A program made the position numbers and the translations under genes. Shown here one piece after another: positions 1,557 to 56,928 of a stretch of DNA of 64,000 nucleotides; the first letter of the stretch is position 1, and each line of letters opens with the position of its first letter. Under the pieces are notes generated by a model that saw nothing but the letters and a program-made list of their open reading frames with translations, ran no database searches and was not told the DNA's origin. The stretch comes from Vicinamibacteria bacterium (GTDB taxonomy: Bacteria; Acidobacteriota; Vicinamibacteria; Fen-336), in contig JAMPXO010000003.1 in the NCBI GenBank assembly GCA_023701125.1, forward strand, positions 32,391 to 96,390, written 5' to 3'.

Positions 1557-1597
1557 ATGATCTTGACAGAAGAGCACGAGCGTACTATTTTAAGTTC

Positions 1598-2197: not shown

Positions 2198-2213
2198 GAC
2201 CCGGAGGTCCCGC

Positions 2214-31709: not shown

Positions 31710-31714
31710 CGCGC

Positions 31715-33438: not shown

Positions 33439-33466
33439 GCGAACGTCCGTCGACGCGCCCGCCCGC

Positions 33467-34135
33467 TCAGGCCGTCTGCAGCGTGAGCAGCGGGTCGAAG
33501 GTCTGCTTCCCGTTCCGCATCCAGATCTCGCGGAACGGCATCGTCGCGACCTCGCCGATCGACAGCGCCCGGTTGAAGGGATGGTCGTGCAGGACCAGCG
33601 CCCCGGTCTCTTCTTCGTGCTCGCTCTGCTCGCCCTGCATCACGATGTTGGCCTGGTAGGCCCCGGAGTCGTCCTTCATGAAGGACTGGTAGAGCTGGTC
33701 CACGGGCTGCCAGGAGTGCTCGCCGATCGACAGGTCCGCGAGCGGCGTGCCGTCGAGGGTGACCTTCGCCGCGAGCGCGCGCTCGGCGCGCACCCACTCG
33801 ATGCCGACGTCCTCCATCCAGTGCGGCAGGTGCCAGCGCTCGATCGCGTGCTCGCGCGCGGCCCGGGTCGTCGTGCCGACCATGTAGGGGTACAGCGCGA
33901 ACTTGGGCAGCCGCTCGCCGGCCTTGACGATCGGCGCGACCATCACCGACATCACGACCTCGCCGTAGGGACCCACCGAGCTCTGGTCGAAATCGAAGCA
34001 GGTCATCGCGAAGATCGACGTGCCGTGGTGCAACTCGGCCAGTTGCAGGTGATCGGGCACGATGCGCCGCGCGTTCTCGGTCGGAAACTCGAAGAAACCG
34101 GCGATGACGTCGGCGTAGCCGTAGACGGTCTTCAA
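33467..34135 (-). CDS. hypothetical protein (possibly acetoacetate-decarboxylase-like fold)
   Basis: In-frame C-terminal 222 codons of ORF 33467..35296, whose N-terminal half overlaps the SPT-like gene out of frame. TTG start at 34135 makes a TTGA overlap with the SPT-like stop. The family guess is weak. Confidence 0.4.
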   Translation of the reverse strand: MKTVYGYADVIAGFFEFPTENARRIVPDHLQLAELHHGTSIFAMTCFDFDQSSVGPYGEVVMSVMVAPIVKAGERLPKFALYPYMVGTTTRAAREHAIERWHLPHWMEDVGIEWVRAERALAAKVTLDGTPLADLSIGEHSWQPVDQLYQSFMKDDSGAYQANIVMQGEQSEHEEETGALVLHDHPFNRALSIGEVATMPFREIWMRNGKQTFDPLLTLQTA

Positions 34136-35415
34136 CGGATGATGCCCTCCTCGCGGAGCACGCCCGCGATGACGTGAACGGCCGTCTCGAGATCCTCCTC
34201 GCTGTGCGCCGCCGAGACCGAGACGCGAAGCCGCGACTTGTGCTTCGGCACGGCCGGGTAGGTCACGGGCTGCAGGAACAGGCCACGGTCCTGGACCTTC
34301 TCGGCGACCGCGAACACGCGAGCGTCGTTGTTGACCATCACCGGCATCACCTGCGAGGTCGACTTGCCGATGTCGACGCCTTCCTCCGCGAAGCGGCGGC
34401 GCAGGTAGGCGACGTTCGACCACAGCTTGGTGCGGAGCTGCGGCTCGGACTGGGCGATGCGCAGGCCGGCCAGCAGCCCGGCCGCGACGGGCGGCGCCAG
34501 GTTGCAGGAGAAGAAGCGCGAGCGGCCGAAGGCGTTGACGTAGTCGATCAGGTCGCGGCTGCCGCACACGAAGCCGCCCTGCCCGCCCAGGCTCTTGGAG
34601 AACGTGCCGAGGTGGAAGTCGATCTCGTTGTCGAGCCCGAAGTGCTCCGCCACGCCGCGGCCGTTGGGGCCGAACAGGAACGTGGAGTGCGCCTCGTCGA
34701 TCAGGATGCGAGCGCCGTGGCGCTTGGCCACCTCGACGATCTCGGGCAGCACGCAGACGTCGCCGTCCATCGAGTAGACGCCCTCGACCACGACCAGCTT
34801 CTTGCCCTTGGCCTTCTGCAGCTTGCGCTCGAGGTCGAGCGGGTTGTTGTGGCGGAACCAGAGCGTGTTCGACTTGGCCAGGATCGCGCCGTCGACGATC
34901 GACGCGTGCGAGTACTGGTCGAGGATGATGTAGTCGCCCGAGCGCATCAGCGCGGCGATGAAGCCCACGTTCGCCGAGTAGCCGGTCGGGAACAGGATCG
35001 CGGCTTCCTTGTCCTTGAACTCGGCCATCTCGCGGGCCAGGTCGAGGTGGACCTGCAGGGTCCCGGACAGCATCGGGGAGCCCGAGGCGCCCAGGCCGTA
35101 GAGGTTGGTGGCATCGATCGCCGCCTGCTTGACCTCGGGCCGGTAGGAGATGCCCAGGTAGTTGTAGGAGGCGAGGTTGATCAGGTCCTGGATGCGGCCG
35201 GTCTTGCGGTTGCGGACCCTGACCCGGGACTCCGGGGCGGTCTGCAGCGGCTCGGAGTAGAGGTAGTAGCCGTTCGGCAACGCCTCGCGATACCACTCGT
35301 TGAACGGACCGAGCAGGTTCAGCGGGTCGTCGCCCGCGCCGTAATAGAAATTGCTGTAGTCGTACTCGGCGAACGTCGACGACTTCCCGGGGTCCTTGCC
35401 GTGGACCGGATCCAT
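34132..35415 (-). CDS. alpha-oxoamine synthase, serine palmitoyltransferase-like
   Basis: ATG at 35415 ('MDPVHGKDPG'). 'FGPNGRGV', 'EGVYSM' and the PLP-lysine motif 'GTFSKSLGGQGGFV' match Sphingomonas SPT ('GTFSKSVGTVGGFV') better than KBL/BioF ('GTLGKALGGASGGY'). Confidence 0.75.
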   Translation of the reverse strand: MDPVHGKDPGKSSTFAEYDYSNFYYGAGDDPLNLLGPFNEWYREALPNGYYLYSEPLQTAPESRVRVRNRKTGRIQDLINLASYNYLGISYRPEVKQAAIDATNLYGLGASGSPMLSGTLQVHLDLAREMAEFKDKEAAILFPTGYSANVGFIAALMRSGDYIILDQYSHASIVDGAILAKSNTLWFRHNNPLDLERKLQKAKGKKLVVVEGVYSMDGDVCVLPEIVEVAKRHGARILIDEAHSTFLFGPNGRGVAEHFGLDNEIDFHLGTFSKSLGGQGGFVCGSRDLIDYVNAFGRSRFFSCNLAPPVAAGLLAGLRIAQSEPQLRTKLWSNVAYLRRRFAEEGVDIGKSTSQVMPVMVNNDARVFAVAEKVQDRGLFLQPVTYPAVPKHKSRLRVSVSAAHSEEDLETAVHVIAGVLREEGIIR

Positions 35416-35545
35416 AGGGCGGTCTCCTTGTGCGCCACGCACCACCGGCACGCGGCAGCGGGATTCTACCAGCCCCGGCCAGCGGCCGGAAGCGCCCACT
35501 GCGGCAAATCGCCGGACGGCTTGGACTTGCGGCGCAGGGAATGCG

Positions 35546-36343
35546 TCAGCGCGGTCGGAACAACTCCCCCGCCAGGCGCCGGGTCAGGCTGCGTGGCACC
35601 AGCGACTGGGCCGCCACGGTGAGCCGGTTCTGCAGGCCGGGGATCACGACCAGGGTCCCCCGCTCCAGGCCGGCGAGCGAGGCGGCCACCACGTCCTCGG
35701 GAGGACTGGCCGGGGTCTTGTCGAACAGCACCTTGTCGGTGCCGGCGACCTGCTGGAACTCCGTCTTGATGTTCCCGGGACAGAGCGCCTGGACGCGGAC
35801 GCCGGTCCCCTCCAGCTCCACTGCCAGCGACTCGGTGAACGAGAGCAGAAACGACTTGGAGGCGGCGTAGACGGCGAAGAACGGCACCGGCTGGAACGCG
35901 GACATCGACACCACGTTGACCACCCGGCCGCGACCGCGGGCGGCCATCGCCGGCACCAGCCGCGCGCACAACTCCACGGTGGTCCGCACGTTCAGGTCGA
36001 TCACCTCCAGCGACGCTTCGACGGGACGTTCGACGAAACGGCCCGTGTCGCCGCGCCCCGCGTTGTTGACGAGCAGGTCGATCTCCCGACCCCGCTTGCC
36101 CAACTCGGCCTCCAGCCGCGCGGGGCCTTCGGGTCGGGCGAGGTCCAGGGTGATGACGTCCACCTGGTCTGCCCCGCCGAGTTCCTCCTGCAGAGCCCTC
36201 AGCCGTTCGACCCGCCGGGCCACCACCACGACCCGCTCGCCGCGGCTGACCAGGGCGCGCGCGAAGGCGGCGCCGATCCCGCTCGACGCGCCCGTGACCA
36301 GCGCCCAAGGCCCGTCCGCCGACTTGTTTCGCCCTCGCGCCAT
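35546..36343 (-). CDS. classical SDR oxidoreductase (3-ketodihydrosphingosine reductase-like)
   Basis: 'MARGRNKSADGPWALVTGASSGIG', 'NNAG' and 'YAASK'. It is the in-frame part of ORF 35546..37183. ORF 35466..36371 is the wrong frame. Confidence 0.75.
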   Translation of the reverse strand: MARGRNKSADGPWALVTGASSGIGAAFARALVSRGERVVVVARRVERLRALQEELGGADQVDVITLDLARPEGPARLEAELGKRGREIDLLVNNAGRGDTGRFVERPVEASLEVIDLNVRTTVELCARLVPAMAARGRGRVVNVVSMSAFQPVPFFAVYAASKSFLLSFTESLAVELEGTGVRVQALCPGNIKTEFQQVAGTDKVLFDKTPASPPEDVVAASLAGLERGTLVVIPGLQNRLTVAAQSLVPRSLTRRLAGELFRPR

Positions 36344-37654: not shown

Positions 37655-38269
37655 ATGAAACTTCTCAATACCCTGATCGAGAAGGTCTCCGACCACCCGG
37701 TGCTGTTCATCTTCTTCCGGGCGATCCTGGAGAACGATTTCAAGGCGATCCGTGCGGTGATCCGGCGCGAGTTGAACCTCGGCCCCGGCCAGCGGACCCT
37801 GGACCTCGGCTGCGGGCCCGGCGCCTTCTCGGACCTGTTCGAGAAGCACGACTACGTCGGCGCCGACCTCAACAAGCGCTACATCGACTACGCCCGCGAG
37901 CACCGCCGCGGCACGTTCATCGCCTCTGACGCGCGCAAGGTGGACCTGCCGGACGCCCGCTTCGACCAGGTGCTGATCTTCGGCCTGCTCCACCACCTCT
38001 CGGACGAGGACACGCGGGCCGTGTTGTCGGAGGCGCGGCGCATGGTCGTCCCCGGCGGCGTGATCCTGGCGATCGAGGACATCCCGGCCCAGCATCGGCT
38101 CAACCTGATCGGCCACCTGCTGCACGCGATCGAGAACGGCGAGCACATCCGCCCGACCGCGGACTACAAGGGGCTGTACGCCGAGGCCGGCACGATCGAA
38201 CTCGAAGAAGAACTGCGCAGTGGCGTCTGCGACTACTACGTCGCGCGGATTCGCACGCCCAGGGTGTGA
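37655..38269 (+). CDS. class I SAM-dependent methyltransferase
   Basis: Motif I 'TLDLGCGPGAF' and motif II 'DQVLIFGLLHHL'. Confidence 0.7.
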   Translation: MKLLNTLIEKVSDHPVLFIFFRAILENDFKAIRAVIRRELNLGPGQRTLDLGCGPGAFSDLFEKHDYVGADLNKRYIDYAREHRRGTFIASDARKVDLPDARFDQVLIFGLLHHLSDEDTRAVLSEARRMVVPGGVILAIEDIPAQHRLNLIGHLLHAIENGEHIRPTADYKGLYAEAGTIELEEELRSGVCDYYVARIRTPRV

Positions 38270-40266
38270 GCGGCCGGCGCCTCGCCGGCACGCTGGCCTG
38301 GGCGCTCGCCGCCGCCGTGCTGGCGGTCGCCGGCCTCGCTGCGGGGTTGCGGCAGGCGCGCCCGCTGGTGCTCGACCTGGGGCCCAACGACGCGGCGCAA
38401 CTTGCCGGCTTCCGCGAGGACTGGGAGCGCGAGGGATCGGTCGCGTTCCGCTGGACGACGCTGCGCTCGGAGGTGCGCTTCCCCTTCGCGCTCGCCGAGC
38501 CCGGGGGCCGCGTCGTACTCCGCTATCGGCGCCACTTCGACGACCCCGCTCGGGTGCGCATCGTCTCCGCGGGCGCCACGGTCGTTCAGTTCGAGGCCAG
38601 GGCCGATCGCAAGAGCCCCTACCTCGAGCTCGAGGCTCCGCTCGGCGCGACGCGCGGGCCGCTCACGCTGGTGTTCGAGTCCCACGTCACCAACGAGCGC
38701 CCGCTGGGCATCGCTCTCGACTGGGTGCGGGTCGAAGGCCGAGGCGGCTACCAGACGACGGGAAGCCTGTCCGTCGCGGTCGCCCTGCTGGCGGCAGGCA
38801 CCGTGTTGCTCGTCGCGGCCGCCGGGGCTCCGGCCCTCCCGGCCGCGGCGGCCGGATTGCTGGTTGCGGCGGCGATCGGACTGGGCGGCTGGTGGGACCC
38901 GATGGCACTGGACCGGATCGTCCAGGGCGGCCTGGCGCCGTGGCTGCTCACGGGTGCGGCTGCGGTCCTGCTGCTCCGGGCGCGGCCGTCCTCGGCCTGG
39001 CTGCGTGTCGAAGTCGCGCACCGGCCCGCGCTGCTCGCGCTGGCCCTCGTGGCGCTGGCTGTGCGGCTCGTGCTGGTGCTCCACCCCCGCTTCTACTACC
39101 CGGACGTGCGCACCCATGCGCTCTTCGCGGGACAACTCGCCCGCCACGGGCTCGAGCGCTTCTTGCAGGGCTTCACCGAGAACCAGTTCCGCTACTCGCT
39201 GGGCATCCAGCTCGAGGGCGATCACTGGTACGCGTTCCCCTACCCGCCGCTGTTCTACGTCTTCGCCCAGCCCCTGATCGGATTGTTCCGCCTCGCGCCC
39301 GAGCTCGCCGTCTCGGCGCTGCCGGCGATGGTCAACGCGCTCGAGGTGCTGCTCGTCTACGCGCTCGCCCGTCGCCTGGCGGCCGTCGCGCCGCTGCGCG
39401 CCGCGGCGCTCGTGGTGGTGCTACCGATCTTCCTGGCCCGGGCGTCGCTGGCGCTCTTCCCCGCCCTGGTCGGCCATGCCCTCGATACGTTGCTGCTGGT
39501 CTGCCTGCTCGACCTGTTCCAGGCCGCGCGCCCTCGCGTCCGCAGCGGGGTCGTGTCGGGCCTGCTGCTGGCGACGGCCTTGCTGGCGTACACACAGGGC
39601 GTCCTGAACTTCGGCCTGCTGCTGCCGCTGGTGCTGGCCTGGGATTTTTTCGCGGACCGCACGCCGACGGGCCGCGATCGGCAACGGGCTCTGCTGACCG
39701 CGGGCGTCCTCGGTGTGACGCTGGCAGCCGGGCTCTTCTACGCGCGCTACGTGCCGGTGTTCGTGGACATGCAGCGGGGCATCCCCCAGCCCGAGGAGCG
39801 CATCTGGCTGGAGTTGCAGGAGCGGCGGGCGCTGCAGGGGGACGACGATCAGCCCGAGGAGCCCAACGACCCCTACGCCGCCCCGACGTTCGAGGCCACC
39901 CGGGGGCTGGCCAAGGCGGGCTCGCGCTTGTGGATTTTCTGGGGCCCGTTCGCGCTCCTGCTACCGGTCGGGGTGGGACTACTGGCCGCGGGCGAAGCCG
40001 CGGCCAGCCGGCGCTTCCTGATCGCGTGGGCCAGCCTCTACATCGTGCTGAACTTCGCATCCGGCAGCCTGCCCGGCCCGAACCTCTTCCGCCACAGCAA
40101 GGACGTCGAGGTCGTCGCGCCGCTCTGCGCGCTCTCTCTCTCTCTCGCCGGCTCCGGGCCCCGCTCGCGCCTGGCGTGGCGCGCGGTATGGATGGCCTTC
40201 GTCGTCTACGCAGCCTGGCGAGTCGTCGAGATCTACGGGCGCATCACACCCGCTCCGTTGCCCTAG
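38266..40266 (+). CDS. large polytopic membrane protein (putative GT-C glycosyltransferase / DUF2723-like)
   Basis: GTG at 38266 (GTGA overlap). An N-terminal extracytoplasmic domain of about 180 aa is followed by at least 12 hydrophobic helices ('FPYPPLFYVF'). Confidence 0.5.
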   Translation: MSGRRLAGTLAWALAAAVLAVAGLAAGLRQARPLVLDLGPNDAAQLAGFREDWEREGSVAFRWTTLRSEVRFPFALAEPGGRVVLRYRRHFDDPARVRIVSAGATVVQFEARADRKSPYLELEAPLGATRGPLTLVFESHVTNERPLGIALDWVRVEGRGGYQTTGSLSVAVALLAAGTVLLVAAAGAPALPAAAAGLLVAAAIGLGGWWDPMALDRIVQGGLAPWLLTGAAAVLLLRARPSSAWLRVEVAHRPALLALALVALAVRLVLVLHPRFYYPDVRTHALFAGQLARHGLERFLQGFTENQFRYSLGIQLEGDHWYAFPYPPLFYVFAQPLIGLFRLAPELAVSALPAMVNALEVLLVYALARRLAAVAPLRAAALVVVLPIFLARASLALFPALVGHALDTLLLVCLLDLFQAARPRVRSGVVSGLLLATALLAYTQGVLNFGLLLPLVLAWDFFADRTPTGRDRQRALLTAGVLGVTLAAGLFYARYVPVFVDMQRGIPQPEERIWLELQERRALQGDDDQPEEPNDPYAAPTFEATRGLAKAGSRLWIFWGPFALLLPVGVGLLAAGEAAASRRFLIAWASLYIVLNFASGSLPGPNLFRHSKDVEVVAPLCALSLSLAGSGPRSRLAWRAVWMAFVVYAAWRVVEIYGRITPAPLP

Positions 40267-45795: not shown

Positions 45796-46530
45796 GTGAT
45801 CACCCTGCTTTTTTCCACGCTGTTGGCCCAGGCGGGCGGGACCGCATTTTCCGGAGGCGTGTTCGGACTGATCCGCGACAGCGGCCCGGTCGCGATCGCC
45901 GTCCTGTTCACGCTCCTCGTGTTCTCCTTCGTCTCGTGGGCGATCATCGTCTACAAGGGCCTCGCGTTGCGTCAAGCGTACCAGCACTCCGAGACGTTCC
46001 TGGAGATCTTCCGGAAGAGCTCCAAGTTCTCCGAGGTGCACTCCGTCTGCGTCCAGCTCAAGGCGAGCCCGCTGGTCGGTGTCTTCCAGGCCGGCTACCA
46101 GGAGGTCAACCAGCAGGTGCGCGCCGGCCAGCAACCGGCCGCAGCCGCTGCCGCGCGCCCGGTCGTGAAGAGCCTGGAGTCCCTCACCCGTGCGCTGGTC
46201 CGCGCCGCCACCGCCGAGTCCACCCGCCTCGAGCGACGGCTGAGTTTCCTCGCGACCACTGCCGCCGTGTGTCCGTTCGTCGGCCTTTTCGGCACCACGT
46301 GGGGCATCATGAACGCCTTCCAGGAGATCGGCTCGCAGGGATCGGCCAACCTGGCCGTCGTCGCGCCGGGCATCTCCGAGGCGCTGATCACGACGGCGAC
46401 CGGCCTGGCCGCGGCGATCCCCGCGGCCGTCTTCTACAACTACTTCGCCAGCCGCGTGCGGGTGCTGACCGCGATGGTCGACGACTTCGCGCTCGAGTTC
46501 CTCAACATCGTCGAGCGGAACTTCACTTAA
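45796..46530 (+). CDS. tolQ: Tol-Pal system protein TolQ (MotA/ExbB family)
   Basis: GTG start, three transmembrane segments, 'GLFGTTWGIMNAF'. Confidence 0.8.
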   Translation: MITLLFSTLLAQAGGTAFSGGVFGLIRDSGPVAIAVLFTLLVFSFVSWAIIVYKGLALRQAYQHSETFLEIFRKSSKFSEVHSVCVQLKASPLVGVFQAGYQEVNQQVRAGQQPAAAAAARPVVKSLESLTRALVRAATAESTRLERRLSFLATTAAVCPFVGLFGTTWGIMNAFQEIGSQGSANLAVVAPGISEALITTATGLAAAIPAAVFYNYFASRVRVLTAMVDDFALEFLNIVERNFT

Positions 46531-46531
46531 G

Positions 46532-47002
46532 GTGGCGATCGGGACGGGCGGCGGAGGCGGCGGACGCGCGAGCGCGCTGTACTCCGGGTTCCGCTCCAAG
46601 CGCGGCCTGCAGCAGATGGGCGAGATCAACATCACACCGCTGGTCGACGTGGTGCTGGTGCTGCTGCTCGTCTTCATGGTGACAGCGCCGATGATGAGCC
46701 GCGGCATCGACGTGTCGCTGCCGGTGGCGGGCCTCAAGGACCCGCAACCCGAGGACCGGCTGACGGTCTCGGTCAATGCCGAGGGCCGCGTCTACCTCGG
46801 CGACCGGCCGATCGCTCTCGAACTGCTCGAGGACGAGTTGCGGGGCCGCCTGCAGGGCGTCGGCCAGCGCATTGCCTACCTGCGGGCCGACGAGCGCATC
46901 GCCTACGGCCGGGTGATCGCGGTCGTCGACCGAATGAAGAGGGCAGGCGTCGAAAACATCGGGTTCGTCTACGAGCTTCCCGAGGAGAAGGCCGCGCGTT
47001 GA
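46532..47002 (+). CDS. tolR: Tol-Pal system protein TolR (ExbD family)
   Basis: 'EINITPLVDVVLVLLLVFM'. An alternative ATG start lies at 46613. Confidence 0.8.
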   Translation: MAIGTGGGGGGRASALYSGFRSKRGLQQMGEINITPLVDVVLVLLLVFMVTAPMMSRGIDVSLPVAGLKDPQPEDRLTVSVNAEGRVYLGDRPIALELLEDELRGRLQGVGQRIAYLRADERIAYGRVIAVVDRMKRAGVENIGFVYELPEEKAAR

Positions 47003-47805
47003 AGGATGCCGTCGATAGCGTGATCGCCGAGCGCGAACGGCTCGACCGGGGCTTCCCGGCCGGGCTCGTGATGTCGCTGGCCGGTCACCTGCTGATCGCG
47101 GGGGCCGCGTTCGCGCTGCCGATCCTGATGCCGGCCAAGCCGAAGCTGCAGGTCTCGATCGGCATCGCCATCCCGATCCCGCGTGGGGGCGGCGGCAGCC
47201 CGACGGCCGGCTCGCCCGACGGCGGCGCCGCACAGCAGCCCCCGGTCACCCAGGCCCCGGAGCCGGAACCGCCCAAGCCCGAGCCTGTCAAGGTCGTGAA
47301 GCCCCCGAAGGAAGCCGAGCGCAAGGGCCTGCCCGACCCGAAGGCGGACAAGAAGAAGGCGAAGGCGAAGAAGCCCGAGCCCGCGCGGCCGTCCAGCACC
47401 ACGTCCGCGAAGTCCACCGCGAGCAAGAAACCGGCCGGCACCGGGGCGCAGAGCACGACCGCCTCCAGCGCGACCCCGGGGGTGGGACTCGGTCCGGTCG
47501 GACCCGGGCTGCCTGGCGGCACGACCTCGACCGGCGACTGGTACCTTGCGGCCGTCCAGCAGAAGATCTGGATGATCTGGAATCAGCAGCTCCGGACCGG
47601 CACGTATCCGCCGGTGACTGTTCGCTTCACCATCCTCGGCGACGGCCAGGTCACCGACGTCGCCATCGTCCAGTCGAGCGGGCAATACCTGCTCGACCAG
47701 GCGGCCCAGCGGGCCGTGCTCACCGCCGGGCCATTCTCGCCGCTGCCCAGGAGCTATGACACCAAGGCCTTCACACTCCAGGCCGTCTTCCAGCCGGTCG
47801 GTTAG
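46999..47805 (+). CDS. tolA: TolA-like / TonB-C-terminal-domain energy-transducer protein
   Basis: TTG start (TTGA overlap). Transmembrane anchor, Pro/Lys-rich spacer 'PEPEPPKPEP', and a C-terminal TonB-like domain. Confidence 0.65.
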   Translation: MKDAVDSVIAERERLDRGFPAGLVMSLAGHLLIAGAAFALPILMPAKPKLQVSIGIAIPIPRGGGGSPTAGSPDGGAAQQPPVTQAPEPEPPKPEPVKVVKPPKEAERKGLPDPKADKKKAKAKKPEPARPSSTTSAKSTASKKPAGTGAQSTTASSATPGVGLGPVGPGLPGGTTSTGDWYLAAVQQKIWMIWNQQLRTGTYPPVTVRFTILGDGQVTDVAIVQSSGQYLLDQAAQRAVLTAGPFSPLPRSYDTKAFTLQAVFQPVG

Positions 47806-49141
47806 CCTCGGCGCCGCCGTCGCGGCGCTGGTGCTCGTACTGACGGGCCGAGAGGCGACGCCTGTCCTTGCGGCGCCCCAGGCCCCGCCTCCCGACACCC
47901 AGATCGTGATCACGAGCGGGACCCAGGGTCCGCGGCTGGCGATCGCCGACTGCGCGCCGCGGCGCGAGGACCCCGCCCTGCGCGCGGCGTGCGGCACCAT
48001 CTCCCAGGTGCTCCGCGCCGACCTGCGCTTCGAGGGACTGTTCCAGTTCGTGCCCGACAGCCTGCTGCGCGCGATCCCGCCGCTCAACCCCGAGTCCCCC
48101 AACATGGAGGACTGGAAGTCGATCGGCGCCGGGGTGCTGGTCGTGACCCGCGTCGACGGCACCGCAGCCGAGCTCGGCGTCGACCTGCGCGTCTACTTCG
48201 TGGAGAACGGCCAGGTGATGCTGGCCAAGCGCTACGCCGGCCCGGCCAGGAACCCGCGCGTGTTCGCCCACCAGGCCTCGGACGACATCGTGCTGCTGAC
48301 CCAGAACCGGGGGGTCGCCCGCACCAAGATCGCCTTTTCCTCCGACCGCGACGCGACCAAGGAGCGCCGCGCGAAGGAGATCTACATCATGGATTACGAC
48401 GGGTTCAACCCGCGCCGGGTCACGGTCAACAACTCGCTGAACATCCTGCCGAACTGGACGCCGGACGCCACCGGGCTCGCCTACGTCTCCTACCGCCAGG
48501 GCCGGCCGCTGGTCTTCCTGTCGCGGATCTACGCGGGGACCAACACCCCGAACCTGACCGGCGAGAAAGAGTCGAGCCAGGCCTTCGCCCCGTCCTTCAG
48601 CCCGGACGGATCGCGCATCGCCTGGGCCAGCAACCGCAGCGGCAACATGGAGGTGTGGGTTGCCAACGCCGACGGCTCCGGGGCCCACGCGGTGACCCAG
48701 AGCGCGGCCTCGGACACGGCCCCGACCTGGAGCCCCACCGGCCGCGAGATCGCCTTCACCTCGAACCGCGGCGGCACGCCCCAGATCTACGTGATGGACG
48801 CCGAGGGCCTGAACGTGCGCCGGCTCTCGACGGTCGGCAATTACAACGACGCCCCGTCGTGGAACCCGAACAAGCAGTTCCTCGAGGTCGCCTACACCTC
48901 TCGGCTGGAGGGCCAGTTCCAGATCGCGATCGTCGACATCGCCAGCGGCCAGGTCCGTCAGATCACCGAGAACCGCGGCTCGTGCGAGTACCCGACCTGG
49001 GCGCCCTCGGGTCGGCACCTCGCGTTCTCGTGCCAGCGCGGCGCGACGTGGCAGATCCACGTCGCGGACCGCGAGGGGCGCATCGTGCAACCGCTCCAGG
49101 CCGGGCCGGGCAGCAACGTCCAGCCCGACTGGAGCAATTGA
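47756..49141 (+). CDS. tolB: Tol-Pal system beta-propeller protein TolB
   Basis: Signal peptide, TolB N-terminal domain, and repeated 'SPDG...IAF/YVS' propeller blades. The ORF-table start overlaps tolA by 50 nt. Confidence 0.85.
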   Translation: MTPRPSHSRPSSSRSVSLGAAVAALVLVLTGREATPVLAAPQAPPPDTQIVITSGTQGPRLAIADCAPRREDPALRAACGTISQVLRADLRFEGLFQFVPDSLLRAIPPLNPESPNMEDWKSIGAGVLVVTRVDGTAAELGVDLRVYFVENGQVMLAKRYAGPARNPRVFAHQASDDIVLLTQNRGVARTKIAFSSDRDATKERRAKEIYIMDYDGFNPRRVTVNNSLNILPNWTPDATGLAYVSYRQGRPLVFLSRIYAGTNTPNLTGEKESSQAFAPSFSPDGSRIAWASNRSGNMEVWVANADGSGAHAVTQSAASDTAPTWSPTGREIAFTSNRGGTPQIYVMDAEGLNVRRLSTVGNYNDAPSWNPNKQFLEVAYTSRLEGQFQIAIVDIASGQVRQITENRGSCEYPTWAPSGRHLAFSCQRGATWQIHVADREGRIVQPLQAGPGSNVQPDWSN

Positions 49142-49155
49142 GGAGCGAACCCGAG

Positions 49156-49731
49156 ATGCACGCCCGACGTCTGAACCTGCTCGCGGCCGTGGTGCTGGCC
49201 GTCTTCGCCCTGGCCTGCGGCGGCGGCAAGCGCCCGTCCGCGCTCACCCAGCCCCCGCCCCCGCCCCCGCCCGGCACCGGCTCCACGTACGGCGGCCCGC
49301 GGCCGCAGCCCGTCGATGCCGGTCCCGACGTGGTGCCGCTCGACGGCGAGGGCGTGGCCGCTTCCGATTTCGAGGAGTCGCGCGCCGACGGCGAAGGCGG
49401 GCCGCTGGCCGACGTGCTGTTCGGCTACGACCAGGCCAACCTGTCGGACGAGGGCCGCGCGCTCGTGGAGCGTCACGCGGTCTGGCTCCAGGCCCGTCGC
49501 GAGGCCAAGATCATCATCGAGGGCCACTGCGACGAGCGCGGCACCGTGGAGTACAACCTCGCCCTCGGCGAGTTGCGGGCCAGGGCCGTCCGCGACCTGC
49601 TGGTCAGCCTCGGCGTCGACGGGGCGCGGCTGAACGTCGTCTCCTACGGCAAGGAGCGGCCCCTCGACGGCGGCTCGGGCGAGGCGTCCTGGGCCCGGAA
49701 CCGGCGCGCGCACTTCGTCGTCCGCCGCTGA
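49156..49731 (+). CDS. pal: peptidoglycan-associated lipoprotein Pal (OmpA family)
   Basis: Lipobox 'FALAC', poly-Pro linker, and the OmpA-like 'FGYDQANLSDEGRALV...NRRAHFVV'. AGGAG lies 10 nt upstream of the ATG. Confidence 0.85.
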   Translation: MHARRLNLLAAVVLAVFALACGGGKRPSALTQPPPPPPPGTGSTYGGPRPQPVDAGPDVVPLDGEGVAASDFEESRADGEGGPLADVLFGYDQANLSDEGRALVERHAVWLQARREAKIIIEGHCDERGTVEYNLALGELRARAVRDLLVSLGVDGARLNVVSYGKERPLDGGSGEASWARNRRAHFVVRR

Positions 49732-49834
49732 CGGTCACCACGACTTTCGCGCCGGGCGCGGTCCTCCCGCGGTCTGGCGATTGTCTACCATGCGCCGCAT
49801 GACGGTTGCGGCGCGCTCGATCGAGGAGGTCCCC

Positions 49835-50632
49835 GTGATCCGCCGCACTCTCGCGTTCGCCCTGCTCGTCGCCCTCGTGGCCGTGCCCGCGCGAGCGGAC
49901 GACAAGCAGGAGATCCAGCGCCTCCAGGTCCAGGTGGCGACGCTGCAGGTCCAGGTCTCAGACCTGCTTCGCCTGGGCCAGGACAACCAGCGCGAGATCA
50001 AGCGCCTCAACGAAGCTCTCGCGGAACAGACGCAGCTCGTCCGCAAGCTCGTGCAGGACCAGCGCCTGCAGCTCGAGTCGTTGCAGACCGCGATGCGCGA
50101 GAACGGTGAGCGCCTCGCCGAGATGGGCGAACGCCTCCAGGGCCTGCAGGGTTCGGCCCTGCCCCCGGCCGGCTATGCCCCGGCGCCGACGGCTGCGCCG
50201 GGTGCGGCAACCGACCCCGCGGCTCCCGGCGCCACGCCGCCCGCGGGCGCCGCGGCCCCGCCCCCGCGCGAGCTCTACACCCAGGCCTACGCCGACTTCG
50301 CGCGCGGCAACTACGATCTCGCCATCCAGGGCTTCCAGGAGTACCTGCGCAACTACTCCGGCACCGACTTCGCCGACAACGCGCAGTACTGGATCGGCGA
50401 GTGCCTCTACGGGAAGCTCAAGTACGAGGAGGCGATCGAGGCGTGGAACGGGCTGCTGCGCGACTACGCCGCCAGCGACAAGCTGCCCGACGCGCGGGTC
50501 AAGAAGGGCATGGCGCTCGAGAAGCTCGGCCGCCGCTCCCAGGCCCAGCTCGAGTACCGCTTCGTCGTCGAGCGCTTCCCCAACACCCAGGCCGCGCGCA
50601 TCGCGCGCGAGAAGCTCAACCCCCAGCAGTAA
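49835..50632 (+). CDS. cpoB: Tol-Pal system protein CpoB/YbgF
   Basis: GTG at 49835 preceded by GAGGAGG. Signal peptide, coiled-coil and C-terminal TPR region. Confidence 0.75.
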   Translation: MIRRTLAFALLVALVAVPARADDKQEIQRLQVQVATLQVQVSDLLRLGQDNQREIKRLNEALAEQTQLVRKLVQDQRLQLESLQTAMRENGERLAEMGERLQGLQGSALPPAGYAPAPTAAPGAATDPAAPGATPPAGAAAPPPRELYTQAYADFARGNYDLAIQGFQEYLRNYSGTDFADNAQYWIGECLYGKLKYEEAIEAWNGLLRDYAASDKLPDARVKKGMALEKLGRRSQAQLEYRFVVERFPNTQAARIAREKLNPQQ

Positions 50633-50653
50633 GGCTTTCGCGAAGGAGATCGC

Positions 50654-51097
50654 ATGGCCAGCGTCAACAAGGTGATCCTGATCGGCAACCTCGGGCGAGA
50701 CCCCGAGATCCGGTACACGCAGGGCGGCGAGCCGATCGCCAACTTCTCGGTCGCCACCAGCGAGCGCTGGACCGACAAGTCCGGCCAGAAGCAGGAGCGC
50801 ACGGCCTGGCACCGGGTCGAGGTGTTCGGCAAGACCGCGCAGATCGCCAAGGACTACCTGTCCAAGGGCCGCCCGGTCTACCTCGAGGGCAGCATCTACT
50901 ACGACGAGTGGACCGACAAGGACGGCAACAAGCGCAACAGCACCAAGATCCGGATCTCGGGCCCCAACTCGAAGCTGGTTCTGCTCGGCTCGCGCGGGGA
51001 AGGCGGCGCAGGCGGTGGCGGCTCGCGTGGCGGCTCGCCCGACGAGGGCCCGGCCGGGGAGGACTTCGTTCCCGGCGACGAGGACGTCCCGTTCTAG
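50654..51097 (+). CDS. ssb: single-stranded DNA-binding protein
   Basis: 'VNKVILIGNLGRDPEIRYT' OB-fold, Gly-rich tail and an acidic 'DEDVPF' C-terminus. Confidence 0.9.
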   Translation: MASVNKVILIGNLGRDPEIRYTQGGEPIANFSVATSERWTDKSGQKQERTAWHRVEVFGKTAQIAKDYLSKGRPVYLEGSIYYDEWTDKDGNKRNSTKIRISGPNSKLVLLGSRGEGGAGGGGSRGGSPDEGPAGEDFVPGDEDVPF

Positions 51098-51114
51098 CCC
51101 ACGGGCGCGCTCCG

Positions 51115-52191
51115 GTGACAGCGGTCGCCGGCCTCCTGCCGATCGCTCGCTGGGCGACGCCGTACGTCTGCTCCCAGGCCCAAGTGGCCGAGCGCGTGCG
51201 CGCTTGGCTCGGCGAACCGGGTACCCCGCCCTCGCTGCAGCGGTTGATGGCGGTGTACGCGGTGGCCGGCGTCGAGGCGCGCTCGTCGGCGCTGCCGATC
51301 GACGAGATCTTCGCGGGCAGCGACTTCGAGTCCCGGAACGACCGCTACGCTGCGGTGATGATCGAGGCCGCCACCGCCGCCTCCCGCGAAGCGCTGGCGC
51401 TCGCCGGCGTGGATGGGACGTCGATCGGCCTCGTCACCAGCGTCTCGTGCACGGGCTTCATGATCCCGGCCGTCGATGCTCACGTCGCCAACGCGCTCCG
51501 GCTCGGGCCGCGCCTGGCCCGGCTGCCGATCACGCAGAGCGGCTGCGCGGGTGGCGCCGTCGGCCTCGCGCGCACCGTCGACTTCCTGGCGGCGCATCCC
51601 GCGCAGGCGGCACTGCTGATCGCGGCGGAGTTCCCGTCGCTGACGTTCCAGCGCTGGGATCGGTCGGCCACCAACGTGATCTCCACCGCGCTGTTCGGCG
51701 ACGGGGCCGCCGCGTGCGTGCTGGTCGGCCGCGACCACCCCCGCTTCGCCTCGGCACCGGTGCACTGGGAGCACGCGGCCAGCCGCTTCTTCGCGGACTC
51801 GCTGCCGATGATGGGCTTCCGGCTCCGCAATCCCGGCCTGCAGATCATCCTCGACAAGGGCCTGGCCCCGTTCGTGCGCCGCCACGCGGGCGAGGCGCTG
51901 GCCACATTTCTCGATGAAGCGCAGGTCTCCCGCGACGAGCTGACGCGCTTCGCGCTCCACCCCGGGGGGCGCAAGGTGATCGAGGGCCTCGCCTCCGCCT
52001 GGGGCCTCACCGCAGCGGACCTCGAGGCCACCCGCCGAGTGCTGCGCGAGCGCGGCAACATGAGCTCGGTGACCGTTCTCCACGTGCTCGCCGAGGTGCT
52101 CGCGGAGCGGCCTGCGGCAGGCGAGCGCGGCCTGCTGGTCGCGTTCGGGCCGGGTTTCGGAGCCGAACTGGCGCTACTGCGCTTCACGTGA
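51115..52191 (+). CDS. type III polyketide synthase (chalcone/stilbene synthase family; SrsA/ArsB/FtpA-like)
   Basis: GTG at 51115, in frame with ORF 50401..52191. Active-site Cys region 'SVSCTGFMIPAVD' and the C-terminal 'FGPGF'. Confidence 0.8.
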   Translation: MTAVAGLLPIARWATPYVCSQAQVAERVRAWLGEPGTPPSLQRLMAVYAVAGVEARSSALPIDEIFAGSDFESRNDRYAAVMIEAATAASREALALAGVDGTSIGLVTSVSCTGFMIPAVDAHVANALRLGPRLARLPITQSGCAGGAVGLARTVDFLAAHPAQAALLIAAEFPSLTFQRWDRSATNVISTALFGDGAAACVLVGRDHPRFASAPVHWEHAASRFFADSLPMMGFRLRNPGLQIILDKGLAPFVRRHAGEALATFLDEAQVSRDELTRFALHPGGRKVIEGLASAWGLTAADLEATRRVLRERGNMSSVTVLHVLAEVLAERPAAGERGLLVAFGPGFGAELALLRFT

Positions 52192-52889
52192 GCCGGCTGC
52201 CCGACCTCCGCGAGCGGTCGCGCGAGCCGGAGTTGCTGGACCTCGGCGGGGTGCCCGACCACGAAGTCGCGGCCTCGCTCGCCGACATCCGCTTCGTGAA
52301 CACCTGGCTCGGCGGCCACCGGACGTTCGCGATGGTGCTGCGGCCCTTCCTCGCCGAGGCCCGAAAACGCGGCGGGCCGCTGACGCTGCTCGACGTCGGC
52401 TGCGGTTCGGCCGACCTGCCCTCCCACCTGCAGGCGCGCGAGCCGAGGCTGGTCCGCGCGTTCGGCGTCGACCTCAAGCCCGGGCACCTGCGCCAGGCCC
52501 CCGCCTCGATTCACCGCGTGGCCGGCGACGTGTTCGCGCCTCCTTTTGCGGAGCGCTCCTTCGACGTCGTGGCCTGCTCGTTGTTTCTCCATCACCTCGA
52601 CGGCGACGACGTTCCACGGGTGCTCTCGTCCCTCTGGCGCCTGGCCCGCCGGGCGCTGGTCGTCAACGACCTGCGCCGTGCCCAGGTCCCGCACGCGTTC
52701 GCGCGGCTGGTCTTCCCCCACCTCTTCCGCTCCCCGGTCAGCGTGCATGACGGCCTGGTGTCGATCCGCCGCTCCTTCACGCCCGGCGAGTTGCGCGAGG
52801 CCTTCGCCGCCGCGGGCTTGCCCGCCCCGACCGTGACCCGCGTCTTCCCCTACCGCCTCGCCGCCGTCGTGCGACGCGAGTCGCCGTGA
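52188..52889 (+). CDS. SAM-dependent methyltransferase (SrsB-like)
   Basis: GTGA overlap with the PKS stop. '[11 protein letters not shown]'. Confidence 0.7.
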
Positions 52890-54094
52890 GCCAGGCGGAG
52901 CGCGAGGTCGTGATCGTGGGTGGCGGCCCGGCCGGTGCCGCCGCGGCGCTGTTCCTGCGGCAGCAGGGCGTCGACGTGCTGCTGCTCGAAGCCGCCCGTT
53001 TTCCCCGCGACAAGATCTGCGGCGAGGGCGTGTCGCCCGAGGCCTGGCGGCTGTTGCGAGCGATGGGGGCCGCAGAGGACGTCGCCCGACTCGCGCCGCG
53101 GCCGCTGCGCGGCATGCGCGTGATCGCGCCCGACGGAACGGTCTTCGAGGGCGTCTACCGGCGCGGCGGCGAGACGCTGACCGGGTTCGCGGTGCGCCGG
53201 ACGCGCCTCGACGCCACCCTGCTCGACGCCGCCCGCCGCGCGGGAGCGGAAGTCCGCGAGGGCGCCCGGGTTGCCGAGGCCGTTCGGTCCGCTGGCGGCG
53301 TCACCGGCGTCCGGATGCAGGACGGCGAATCGATCCGGGCCCGCTTCGTGCTCGGCTGCGACGGCCGCTGGGGGGCCTGCGCGCGGGCCGTGGGCGGCCT
53401 GCGCGGATCCCGCTTCTTCCGGCGCTTCGCGTTGCGCCTTCACCTCGAAGGCGTGGCGGGCCTTGGCTCCGTCGGCGAAATGCACGTGGGCCGCGGCGGG
53501 TACTGCGGCATCGCCCCGCTCTCGGACACGTCGGCCAACGTGGCCTTCGTGCTGGACGCTTCCGCCTTCGCCGCCGCGGCCGGCCGGCTCGAGGACTTCG
53601 CCCGCGAGACGCTCGCGCAGCGCTTCCCCGCGGTCGCGGCCCGCTGTCGCGACGCCAAGTGGCTGGGACCGCCGCGCGCCATCGGGCCGCTCGCGGTCTC
53701 GGTCCCCCGCCGCGCCCTGCCCGGCCTCCTGCTCCTGGGGGACGCCGCAGGCTTCTACGATCCCTTCACCGGCGAAGGCGTGACCCTCGCCCTGCGCAGC
53801 GCCGAACTCGCCGTCGGGCCCGTGGTCGACGCCCTGCACGGCCGCGTGTCGTCTGCGGCTGCCGCCGCGCGCTACGAGCGCGAGTATGCTGGCGCCACTC
53901 GCGACAAGTTCCGCCTCAACCGCCTGCTGCAGTGGGTCGTGGCCTGGCCGGCGGTCGCCAACGCGGTCGCCCGCCGCTTGCGCGCGCGCCCGCGCACGTG
54001 CGACGAACTGGTCGGCATCGCCGGCGATTTCGTGCCGGCGCGGCGCGCCCTGGGCCCCCGCTTCCTGCTCCAGTTGCTCCAGCCCGGCGCCTGA
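52886..54094 (+). CDS. FAD-dependent oxidoreductase (geranylgeranyl-reductase / SrsC-like flavoprotein)
   Basis: GTGA overlap with the methyltransferase stop. '[14 protein letters not shown]' and '[14 protein letters not shown]'. Confidence 0.75.
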
Positions 54095-54183
54095 CGGCGG
54101 GCCCGAAACCGGGGGGCGGCTCCGCGGGGGGTGCAGTAGAATTCCTTTTTCTCGGCAGCCTGCCGTTCCCGGAGGTAATTCGC

Positions 54184-56298
54184 GTGGCCACGACCGCCCT
54201 CAGCCAGGAGACCGGACTCGACCGCCAGACTCTGGTGGGGATCTACCGGACGATGTACCAGTCGCGCCGGGTCGACGACAAGGAGATCCAGCTCAAGCGC
54301 CAGAACAAGATCTTCTTCCAGATCAGCGGCGCGGGCCACGAAGCGGTGCTGGCGGCGGCGGGCCTCGTGCTCAAGCCCAACCACGACTGGTTCTACGCGT
54401 ACTACCGCGACCGCGCGCTGATGCTGGCGCTGGGCATGACGCCGCTGGAGATGCTGCTCTCCGCGACCGGCGCCGCGGACGACCCGAACTCCGGCGGCCG
54501 CCAGATGCCCTCGCACTGGGGTCACGCGGGCCTCAACATCGTCACCAAGTCTTCGCCCACCGGCACCCAGTTCCTGCAGGCGGTCGGCTGCGCGGAGGCC
54601 GGCATCTACGCTGCCGCCCAGGAGGGAGCCGGCACGAAGCTCGGGCTGCCCTTCCGCTCGGACGAAATCGTGTACGTCTCGACCGGCGACGGCACGACGT
54701 CCGAGGGCGAGTTCTGGGAGAGCCTCAACACCGCCTGCAATCGCAAGCTGCCCGTCCTCTACCTGGTCGAAGACAACGGCTACGCGATCTCGGTCCCGGT
54801 CGAGGTCCAGACGGCCGGTGGCAGCATCTCGAAGCTGGTCTCTTCCTTCCCCAACCTGCTGGTGCGCGAGGTGGACGGTTGCGACCCGCTGGCGAGCCTC
54901 GGCACCCTGCGCGAGGCGGCGACCTGGTGTCGCGAGCGACGCGGGCCTGCGCTCGTCCACGCCAAGGTGATCCGGCCGTACTCGCACTCGTTGTCCGATG
55001 ACGAGGCCCTGTACCGCCCCGGCCACGAGCGCGAGGCCGACGCGGCGCGCGACCCGCTGGTCTCCTGGCCGGCCTTCCTGCTACGCGAGGGACACGCGAC
55101 CGAGGCCGAACTGGAGGCGCTGCGCGCCGAGGTCGACCGCGAGGTGGCCGAGGCCGGCGATCTCGCCTGTGCCGCGCCCCAGCCCGAGCCGGCTTCAGCC
55201 CTGCTCCACGTCTACTCGCCCGAGGTCGACCCGACCTCGAAGGCGTTCGACACCGAGCCGGCCTTCGCGGGCGATCCCAAGACCGTCGTCGACCTGCTCA
55301 ACGCCTGCCTGCACGAGGAGATGGCTCGCGACCCGCGGGTCGTCGTCTTCGGCCAGGACGTCGCCGACTGCAGCCGCGAGGACAACCTGCCCCACGTCAA
55401 GGGCAAGGGCGGCGTGTTCAAGGTCACCCACAACCTGCAGCGGCGCTTCGGCGGTGAGCGCGTGTTCAACTCGCCGCTGGCCGAGGCCAACATCGTCGGC
55501 CGCGCGATCGGCATGGCCACCCGCGGGCTGAAGCCGGTGGTCGAGATCCAGTTCTTCGACTACATCTGGCCCGCGTACATGCAGATGCGCAACGAGCTGG
55601 CGCTGATCCGCTGGCGCTCGAACGGGGCGTTCAAGTGTCCCGCCGTCGTGCGCGTGACCTACGGCGGCTACCTCCAGGGCGGCGCCGTCTATCACTCCCA
55701 GTGCGGTGAGGTGCTGTTCACCCACATCCCCGGCCTGCGGGTCGTGCTGCCGTCGAACGCCGAGGATGCGAACGGCTTGCTGCGCACCGCGATCCGCTGC
55801 GACGACCCCGTGCTCTTCCTCGAGCACAAGCACCTGTACCGTCAGACCTACAACAAGGGCCGCAACCCCGGCCCCGACTACTGCATCCCGTTCGCCAAGG
55901 CGCGCACGGCGCGGCCCGGCAAGGACCTGACGATCGTCACCTTCGGCGCGCTCGTGCAGCGCAGCCTGGTGGCCGCCAAGCAGGTGGCCGAGAGCGACGG
56001 CATCGAGGCCGAGGTGATCGACCTGCGCACGCTGTCGCCCTACGACTGGGACGCGATCGCGGAGAGCGTGAAGCGCACTGGCAAGGTGATCGTGGCCCAG
56101 GAGGACCAGATCTCCTGGGGCTACACCGCGGAGATCGCGGCCCGCATCTCGGACGAGCTGTTCGAGTGGCTGGACGCCCCGGTCAAGCGCATCGGCGCCA
56201 CCGACACCTTCGTCGGCTACGCGCCGTCGCTCGAGGACTTCATCCTGCCCCAGATCCCGGGCATCGCCGCGGAGATCCGCAAGCTCGCCCGCTATTAG
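54184..56298 (+). CDS. fused alpha/beta E1 component of a 2-oxoacid dehydrogenase (thiamine-diphosphate dependent)
   Basis: GTG at 54184 with GGAGG 8 nt upstream. ThDP motif '[10 protein letters not shown]...NN' in the alpha half and a transketolase-like beta half. No E2 or E3 gene is adjacent. Confidence 0.8.
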
Positions 56299-56305
56299 GA
56301 CTAGG

Positions 56306-56559
56306 TGGGGGTGCGGGGGCGGAGGAGCGTCCGTTCGCGCCGTAGCCCCCGCGGGACCGGCGACGGGTTCACCCCGGCGCTGGAACCCTATGGGGGTGCG
56401 GGGGCGGAGGAGCGTCCGTTCGCGACGTAGCCCCCGCGGGACCGGCGACGGGTTCACCCCGGCGGTGGAACCCTATGGGGGTGCGGGGGCGGAGAGCGTC
56501 CGTTCGCGCCGTAGCCCCCGCGGGACCGGCGACGGGTTCACCCCGGCGCCGGAACCCTA
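56306..56559 (+). repeat. three tandem copies of a structured GC-rich repeat of about 85 bp
   Basis: Units at 56306-56390, 56391-56475 and 56476-56559 are nearly identical. Each has inverted repeats 'gcgggggc...gcccccgc' and 'gggttc...gaaccc'. They fill the gap between the convergent E1 and cupin genes. Confidence 0.8.
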
Positions 56560-56928
56560 TGGCTTGCTCGTGCCGGCTCGGCCGTAGCGGTCTTCGAGGC
56601 GGACGACGTCGTCCACCTCGGGCGTCGAGACCTCGAGGATGTCCGTGTCCTCGAGTCCGGTCATGCGGTGCAGGGTGCCGGGCGTGATGTGGTAGCTCTC
56701 GCCCGGGGCCATCTCGACCCGGCGCAGCTCGCCCGGCTCGTCCTTGCCCTTGACCTCGAACAGCAGCTTTCCGCTCTGGATCAGGATCGTCTCGTCCTTG
56801 ACCTCGTGGTACTGGAGGGACAGGCTCTCGCCCTTCTTCACGTGCAGCAGCTTGCCCACGTAGCGCTCGGTGCGCGCCCACCAGACCTCGTGCCCCCAGG
56901 GCTTTTCGACCCGCTTGTGCTCGGTCAC
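56557..56928 (-). CDS. cupin-domain protein
   Basis: 'GESLSLQYHEVKDETILIQSG' cupin_2 motif. Its stop codon lies inside the last repeat unit. Confidence 0.65.
   Translation of the reverse strand: MTEHKRVEKPWGHEVWWARTERYVGKLLHVKKGESLSLQYHEVKDETILIQSGKLLFEVKGKDEPGELRRVEMAPGESYHITPGTLHRMTGLEDTDILEVSTPEVDDVVRLEDRYGRAGTSKP

Follow-up and report, generated by a model that had tools for sequence, protein, structure and literature searches.

A type III polyketide synthase operon in a conserved Vicinamibacteria neighbourhood, probably for a tailored phenolic lipid, and its likely independent E1 neighbour

We analysed a 64,000-nucleotide (nt) stretch of a Vicinamibacteria genome (contig JAMPXO010000003.1, positions 32,391 to 96,390; hereafter the window), in which three consecutive forward-strand genes for a type III polyketide synthase (PKS), a methyltransferase and a flavoprotein are followed by a gene for a fused E1 component of a 2-oxoacid dehydrogenase. 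Because the window has about 72% G+C, genes were called by the G+C content of third codon positions (GC3 frame analysis) and not from raw open reading frames (ORFs). The type III PKS (51115-52191, 358 amino acids, aa) carries the Pfam domains Chal_sti_synt_N and Chal_sti_synt_C, the class-I S-adenosylmethionine (SAM)-dependent methyltransferase (52188-52889, 233 aa) matches Methyltransf_11/25/23/12, and the flavin adenine dinucleotide (FAD)-dependent oxidoreductase/monooxygenase of the geranylgeranyl-reductase-like group (52886-54094, 402 aa) matches FAD_binding_3 (E 4.5e-25). Both junctions between these genes, read directly, are GTGA, i.e. a 4-nt overlap of start and stop codons. The fused alpha/beta E1 (54184-56298, 704 aa), with domains E1_dh, Transket_pyr and Transketolase_C, starts 89 nt past the stop codon of the FAD gene. 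All three operon proteins and the E1 score above curated Pfam cut-offs.

The same PKS, methyltransferase and FAD proteins were called independently on a Logan metagenome contig of 4.7 kb with identical sequence, and a 704-aa NCBI protein, labelled Vicinamibacteria bacterium, is 100% identical to the E1 of the window. A preliminary description of this DNA had placed the module at 51115-56298, with three genes joined by 4-nt overlaps and a fused E1 next to them; the coordinates proved exact by GC3 frames and the independent call, and the arrangement is borne out by the junctions and the Pfam domains. The operon is real and intact, and is one more case of the known type III PKS phenolic-lipid clusters. 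With a probability of roughly 0.7, we read the locus as three translationally coupled genes that form an operon for a tailored phenolic lipid, and the E1 gene as separate and independently promoted.

The N and C domains of the PKS score 51.1 and 60.1 bits, respectively, against a Pfam gathering cut-off of 27. Its best solved relative is Pks11 of Mycobacterium tuberculosis (PDB 4JAO; E 7e-56, 193 bits, 33% identity over 339 residues), and further ones are CylI, then THNS/RppA (3e-37, 132 bits) and PKS18 (101 bits), while ArsC (3VS8) is missing from the top 60 of such relatives. In alignments, residues Cys144, His282 and Asn315 coincide with the triads of Pks11, THNS and PKS18, and this catalytic Cys-His-Asn triad is invariant in 125-126 of 126 PKS relatives. 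The closest genomic relatives come from Vicinamibacteria metagenome-assembled genomes (MAGs; 73-74% identity), with a next tier at 54-59% that also belongs to Vicinamibacteria/Acidobacteriota; judged from sequence, the host is an acidobacterium, neither an actinomycete nor a myxobacterium. Relatives 55-60% identical to the PKS carry the JGI name "alkylresorcinol/alkylpyrone synthase", and identity to Streptomyces SrsA-like enzymes is 35-38%.

In a small neighbour-joining tree with few references and no support values, the Vicinamibacteria PKSs group with those of Planctomycetota and Polyangiaceae MAGs; the sister group consists of Pks11 and 2 Streptomyces SrsA-like enzymes, and THNS/RppA falls outside. 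The preliminary description had proposed a PKS of the phenolic-lipid kind and had named clustering with RppA, or a missing triad, as what would speak against it. The triad is intact and invariant, the enzyme does not group with RppA/THNS, and the JGI names of the relatives agree, so that this assignment holds.

The position that corresponds to ArsB Trp281, located in the PKS through the Pks18 Leu266 equivalence given in PMC7064976, is occupied by Phe235, and by Phe in 123 of the 126 relatives. Trp is found there in Pks11, in the Streptomyces SrsA-like enzymes and in one planctomycetal enzyme. The PKS appears to belong to a Phe-type clade of type III PKSs that had not been characterised before, which we regard as mildly interesting. 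ArsB Trp281, the equal of Pks18 Leu266, favours resorcinol over pyrone, i.e. aldol cyclisation (PMC7064976, PMC6274091), yet DquA has Trp at this position and gives pyrones only, so the Trp rule is not absolute (PMC9827899). Given Phe at this position and an imperfect rule, the choice between resorcinol and pyrone cyclisation is not predictable.

The alternative that survives best is an alkylpyrone synthase: the PKS would form a lactone ring, as is known in vitro for Pks11 and BpsA, and the operon would yield methylated alkylpyrones and not resorcinol-derived quinones. The replacement of the aldol-favouring Trp by Phe throughout the clade is compatible with this, as are the name of the closest solved relative (Pks11, an alpha-pyrone synthase) and the pyrones made by the Trp-bearing DquA (PMC9827899). 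However, Phe is bulky and aromatic too, and resorcinol formation has been attributed to an aromatic "steric wall" (PMC6274091). Moreover, a flavoprotein and a methyltransferase form the tailoring pair of resorcinol-to-quinone pathways, and we consider methylated alkylpyrones a possible, though tentative, product of the operon.

The PKS gene starts 17 nt past the stop codon of ssb (50654-51097, forward strand; single-strand DNA-binding protein, Pfam SSB E 5e-35). The ssb-PKS adjacency recurs in most Vicinamibacteria loci, with a spacer of mostly 17-46 nt, and the order PKS-methyltransferase-FAD after ssb is kept in most of the Vicinamibacteria loci found with a search that finds close relatives only. 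This conservation suggests a class-wide trait and not a sporadic cluster, and the module may be co-transcribed with cpoB (49781-50632, forward strand) and ssb.

A sigma-54 promoter was also considered for the PKS operon. A perfect or near-perfect motif TGGCAC-N5-TTGC lies 5' of the PKS gene in 3 of 29 relatives (L015, at -78; L022, at -19; L010, at -77), and the window has no such site; this promoter was not adopted.

A more far-reaching proposal is that the module is a class-wide core trait of Vicinamibacteria after ssb, in which a PKS of the Phe clade constitutively makes a phenolic lipid of the envelope or an alternative quinone of polyketide origin, comparable with mycobacterial PkQ. To us this seems unlikely in that full form.

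The methyltransferase is a class-I Rossmann enzyme by its Pfam matches. Its NCBIfam match is to PRK06202 (130 bits, under the cut-off), and sequence search returned no solved relative for it. SrsB-type methyltransferases, by contrast, are membrane proteins of the ICMT family (PMC6669644). We confirmed the architecture of a PKS followed by an ICMT gene on plasmid records of Streptomyces, Rhizobium, Stenotrophomonas and Sphingomonas, the Streptomyces locus having an FAD monooxygenase in addition, and BLASTP gave no similarity between the methyltransferase of the window and the ICMT protein of this Streptomyces srs-type locus. Similarity was seen to Mtr of Gimesia maris (about 35% identity in 2 collinear tblastn segments, E 1e-9 and 1e-6, obtained with a tiny database and with supplementary DNA text damaged by optical character recognition, OCR). 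This likeness is suggestive only.

A distant homologue of the flavoprotein is the FAD monooxygenase encoded in a Streptomyces operon of the srs type, with 30% identity over 281 aa (E 2e-14), the reference being a plasmid locus with the PKS-ICMT-monooxygenase (srs) architecture and not SrsC of S. griseus itself. The two proteins have the motifs DK-x-CGEG and GDAAG-x-D-x-x-TGEG in common. Against Fdo of G. maris, the flavoprotein aligns in 4 short collinear segments of 26-45% identity (from the same OCR-damaged source), which span the GxGxxG region and the motifs FPR-x-K-x-CG, GY-x-G and LGDAAG.

The best NCBIfam match of the flavoprotein is GG-red-SF (143 bits), followed at 127 bits by the monooxygenase QhpG. 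This raises the alternative that it is a true geranylgeranyl-reductase (GGR)-type enzyme, which would saturate double bonds of an alkenyl or prenyl side chain and hydroxylate no ring. MenJ, BchP/ChlP and DGGGPL reductases come after GG-red-SF among the matches, a GGR-style K-x-C-G-E-G motif is present, and the solved relatives include the GGR structure 3OZ2. However, 143 bits lies below the family cut-off of 158.8, and QhpG is a monooxygenase of the same fold group. Homology and a motif are also common to the flavoprotein and the annotated FAD monooxygenase of srs-type operons, and the Pfam scan shows no prenyltransferase gene in the operon; we therefore find a purely reductive role improbable and favour a ring-modifying flavoprotein.

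The flavoprotein also accompanies the PKS outside the Vicinamibacteria. In MAGs of Planctomycetota and Polyangiaceae (L033, 10001-12273; L034, 756-3061; L039, 10001-12093), a Phe-type PKS gene is followed directly by a homologous FAD gene, and no methyltransferase was recognised beside the pair in the loci checked (L033 and L036). A 199-aa ORF between PKS and FAD in L036 was considered as a methyltransferase and rejected, being a Leu/Phe-tRNA protein transferase. The PKS-flavoprotein pair appears to be the conserved core, with the methyltransferase variable.

Taken as a phenolic-lipid operon, the three enzymes would act in sequence, with substrate, cyclisation mode, regiochemistry and physiological role all predicted. 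The type III PKS would load a long-chain fatty acyl thioester onto Cys144, carry out about three malonyl extensions and close the ring to a 5-alkylresorcinol or an alkylpyrone. The class-I SAM methyltransferase would then methylate the ring, on oxygen or on carbon. Finally, the GGR-like, SrsC-related flavoprotein would hydroxylate the ring to give a membrane lipid of the methoxy-alkylhydroquinone/quinone type, as in the srs/pkq and hid pathways. The E1 would at most shape the alkyl chain indirectly, via the pool of branched fatty acids.

The E1 itself is most likely of the branched-chain type and probably serves the branched-chain 2-oxoacid dehydrogenase of the cell, whose E2 and E3 genes would lie elsewhere. 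Its E1_dh, Transket_pyr and Transketolase_C domains score 175.9, 126.3 and 109.3 bits, respectively, and its translation shows the GDG...N motif for thiamine pyrophosphate and Mg as well as an H-S-x-S-D-D loop. The best solved matches are both subunits of the Thermus thermophilus enzyme 1UM9 (beta 2e-77, alpha 1e-42), ahead of alpha subunits of pyruvate dehydrogenase, and relatives of the E1 go under the JGI name "2-oxoisovalerate dehydrogenase E1 component". Like branched-chain E1 enzymes, whose fused form bears that same name in KEGG/JGI, the E1 of the window has both alpha and beta domains and a C-terminal Transketolase_C; it differs from 1UM9, with its separate alpha and beta subunits, in that both are fused in one 704-aa chain. 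No lipoyl/2-oxoacid_dh (E2) or E3 protein was found among the proteins scanned, a set that takes in all ORFs of 350 aa or more in the 64-kb window, with shorter ORFs beyond the neighbourhood covered in part. The preliminary description had noted a fused E1 with no E2 or E3 nearby, and within this set the statement is correct. A literature search on fused branched-chain E1 enzymes and on the fatty acids of Vicinamibacter gave nothing usable.

Most likely, the E1 gene is an adjacent but separate transcription unit with its own promoter, a housekeeping gene whose adjacency to the operon reflects a conserved neighbourhood. The hexamer TAGAAT occurs only twice in the window, at 54137-54142 on the forward strand and at 35468-35463 on the reverse strand; each lies between genes, the first 47 nt 5' of the E1 start and the second 17 nt 5' of the start of an Spt-like aminotransferase gene. 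Among aligned loci, a TA[GA][AG]AT hexamer (mostly TAGAAT) precedes the E1 gene in 19 of 19, be it the FAD gene or a divergent one that lies upstream. TAGAAT looks like a -10 box of Vicinamibacteria promoters, and the forward copy would be the likely -10 box of the E1 gene. The true E1 start is GTG 54184, supported by a ribosome-binding site (RBS) read from the sequence, GGAGG at 54171-54175, 8 nt before this codon. A scan of 50500-56700 for consensus promoters and terminators found nothing.

Comparison among relatives bears on the same point. FAD and E1 are 65 nt to 5.7 kb apart, and an opposite-strand YceI-like gene stands between the two in at least 8 relatives, four of which have a type III glutamine synthetase gene there too. 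In 2 relatives that have the operon (L005 and L017), the sequence continues for about 8 kb beyond it and includes no E1. Planctomycetota PKS-FAD loci with several kb downstream also show no E1, and none was seen in the 1-3 kb covered downstream of the Polyangiaceae and Streptomyces loci. Across relatives, identity is 54-77% in the operon (PKS, methyltransferase and FAD) and 72-92% for the E1, which in this resembles ptsI, rpoN and ssb of the same syntenic block and is conserved to the degree expected of a core branched-chain E1.

The preliminary description had suggested that the E1 might supply an unusual, for example branched, acyl starter. For such a dedicated enzyme, decarboxylating a branched or unusual 2-oxoacid for the PKS, one can point to its branched-chain type, to a same-strand position 65-140 nt 3' of the FAD gene, found in the window and about ten relatives, to its location within 6 kb of the FAD gene in most Vicinamibacteria loci with enough sequence, and to the lack of a terminator-like hairpin between the two genes. 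By contrast, it has its own conserved -10-like box and RBS, opposite-strand YceI genes, with or without type III glutamine synthetase, interrupt the pair, two relatives keep the operon with no E1 within 8 kb, related PKS-FAD pairs in Planctomycetota lack it within several kb downstream, and it evolves far more slowly than the operon genes. By established enzymology, an E1 alone, without an E2, cannot form acyl-CoA, and alkylresorcinol-type PKSs take long-chain acyl starters and not C4-C5 units. Since the whole block from tolB to rpoN is syntenic across the class, the FAD-E1 adjacency alone carries little weight. We consider a dedicated starter supply very unlikely and abandon that suggestion in favour of a housekeeping E1 with its own promoter.

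The YceI-like genes found between FAD and E1 in many Vicinamibacteria, and not in the window, lie on the minus strand (L004, 6130-6744; L015, 13154-13783; L022, 12996-13595; L029, 10682-11290). The YceI family binds lipids or polyisoprenoids, and the YceI-like protein may be a carrier for the phenolic lipid. The type III PKS operon of "Saltatorellus ferox" also includes a lipid/isoprenoid-binding protein (PMC10896814).

The least credible of the alternatives, a flavin-dependent halogenase in place of the monooxygenase, we reject despite top PDB matches to halogenases (CndH, 3E1T, 1.6e-22; 8ZOP; CmlS; PltA; Bmp2) and a Pfam Trp_halogenase match at 8e-15, because the hallmark W-x-W-x-I-P motif beside GxGxxG is absent (the region reads GGYCGIAPL), FAD_binding_3 is better by ten orders of magnitude, and the N-terminal motif has the Cys of the GGR group and not the I-G-E-S form of halogenases.

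Several points weigh against reading the locus as a phenolic-lipid operon beside an independent E1. No member of the PKS clade has a product on record, and the clade has Phe in 123 of 126 sequences where the characterised SrsA-like, Pks11 and planctomycetal enzymes keep Trp. The best score of the flavoprotein being to a geranylgeranyl-reductase model, it may be a reductase and not a hydroxylase, and the role of the homologous Fdo of G. maris is not settled by experiment (PMC10896814). The comparison with Mtr and Fdo rests on OCR-damaged DNA text. Finally, the E1 gene lies downstream of the operon in about 22 of the 26 Vicinamibacteria loci with enough sequence, and no terminator hairpin was detected between FAD and E1, so that read-through co-transcription, and with it some functional coupling, is possible.

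The operon sits in a conserved core of the Vicinamibacteria genome, tol-pal-cpoB-ssb / PKS-methyltransferase-FAD / E1 / pts-rpoN. Upstream, all on the forward strand, are tolQ (45796-46530), tolR (46532-47002), a TonB/TolA-like gene (46999-47805), tolB (47756-49141) and pal (49138-49731), which lead to cpoB and ssb. Beyond the E1, the minus strand encodes a cupin gene, ptsI, 3 small genes, hprK, rpoN, an ABC-ATPase (LptB-like) and an LptA-family gene, identified with Pfam except for the 3 small genes between ptsI and hprK, whose likeness to HPr, EIIA and RapZ is one of position and size alone. A scan of the locus against Rfam gave no match.

The convergent gap between the stop codons of the E1 and cupin genes is filled by an 85-bp unit repeated 3 times in tandem (56306-56562, 96% match). 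A single unit folds at -55.5 kcal/mol (z -2.8) and has no Rfam match. In the closest relatives (L002 and L003), the E1 and cupin genes are 2 nt apart, so this array is specific to the genome of the window.

Elsewhere in the window, four regions (1256-3043, minus; 3262-4359, plus; 16257-17726, minus; 38266-40263, plus) are coding, with products of 366-666 aa and high GC3, and match no Pfam family at E <= 1e-5. The cluster at 30030-36343 on the minus strand, a sphingolipid-type operon in the preliminary description, encodes a short-chain dehydrogenase/reductase, an alpha-oxoamine synthase, an unknown protein, a YegS-type lipid kinase, an acyltransferase, a second unknown protein and a CDP-alcohol (inositol-phosphate-synthase-like) transferase. 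The best match of the alpha-oxoamine synthase is serine palmitoyltransferase (362 bits, under the 640 cut-off), and a function in sphingolipid or inositol-lipid synthesis is plausible for this cluster.

Little is known about the lipids and quinones of Vicinamibacteria, which are abundant in soil and for the most part uncultured. An alkylresorcinol- or quinone-type lipid made by a conserved operon would indicate a membrane component, possibly a biomarker or an alternative electron carrier.

The preliminary description had also assigned the module the same gene order and content as the srsABC, ars and ftp loci. With Azotobacter arsABCD and Myxococcus ftp, the window has in common only a type III PKS of phenolic lipids. 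The ars locus has 2 type I fatty acid synthase (FAS)-like genes, ArsA and ArsD, which hand the starter directly to the PKS, together with 2 PKSs and no known methyltransferase or flavoprotein, and the ftp locus has a fatty acyl-AMP ligase and an acyl carrier protein (ACP) beside the PKS. No multidomain FAS/PKS gene and no AMP-binding protein occur among the window ORFs scanned, small ORFs of ACP size elsewhere in the window having been scanned in part. On these grounds, we regard the label "ars/ftp-like" as wrong.

The resemblance to srsABC of S. griseus, and to pkqABC of mycobacteria and Streptomyces, is closer. The order PKS-methyltransferase-flavoprotein is the same by enzyme class, and an SrsC-like FAD monooxygenase homologous to the flavoprotein of the window (30% identity) is likewise encoded directly after the methyltransferase. 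The SrsA-like PKSs, however, form in the tree a sister clade of the PKS clade of the window, with Trp in place of Phe, and the srs-type methyltransferase is a membrane protein of about 170 aa of the ICMT/PEMT family (PMC6669644), whereas that of the window is an unrelated class-I Rossmann enzyme. Gene order and flavoprotein thus match the earlier assignment and gene content does not, so that "srsABC-like" is a fair functional analogy and not membership. Pks11 matches the PKS in its triad and overall length, and differs in having Trp at the ArsB-281 position and another genomic context.

The closest known analogues, not named in the preliminary description, appear to be the cyanobacterial hid and the planctomycetal operons, Hid being compared by enzyme class and gene order. 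Both have, like the window, a type III PKS, a soluble SAM methyltransferase and an FAD oxidoreductase, in the orders hidC>hidA>hidB and, for Gimesia maris and Rhodopirellula baltica, mtr-fdo-t3pks (PMC10896814). The hierridin cluster occurs in both the hidA>B>C and the hidC>A>B order (PMC8086630, PMC6836626), and the PKS>methyltransferase>oxidoreductase order of the window is one of these two arrangements. The enzyme classes of the mtr-fdo-t3pks operons are found in 58 planctomycetal genomes, their PKSs were shown to make alkylresorcinols, and these gained a single methyl group when mtr and fdo of G. maris were co-expressed (PMC10896814). The methyltransferase and flavoprotein of the window are collinear with G. 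maris Mtr and Fdo, as far as the OCR-damaged text allows, but its PKS, from another phylum, shares only about 30% identity with the single planctomycetal PKS compared and belongs to the separate Phe clade. For annotation, the neighbouring fused E1 is best left out of the biosynthetic cluster, and the cluster itself compared with the hid and planctomycetal operons and not with ars or ftp.

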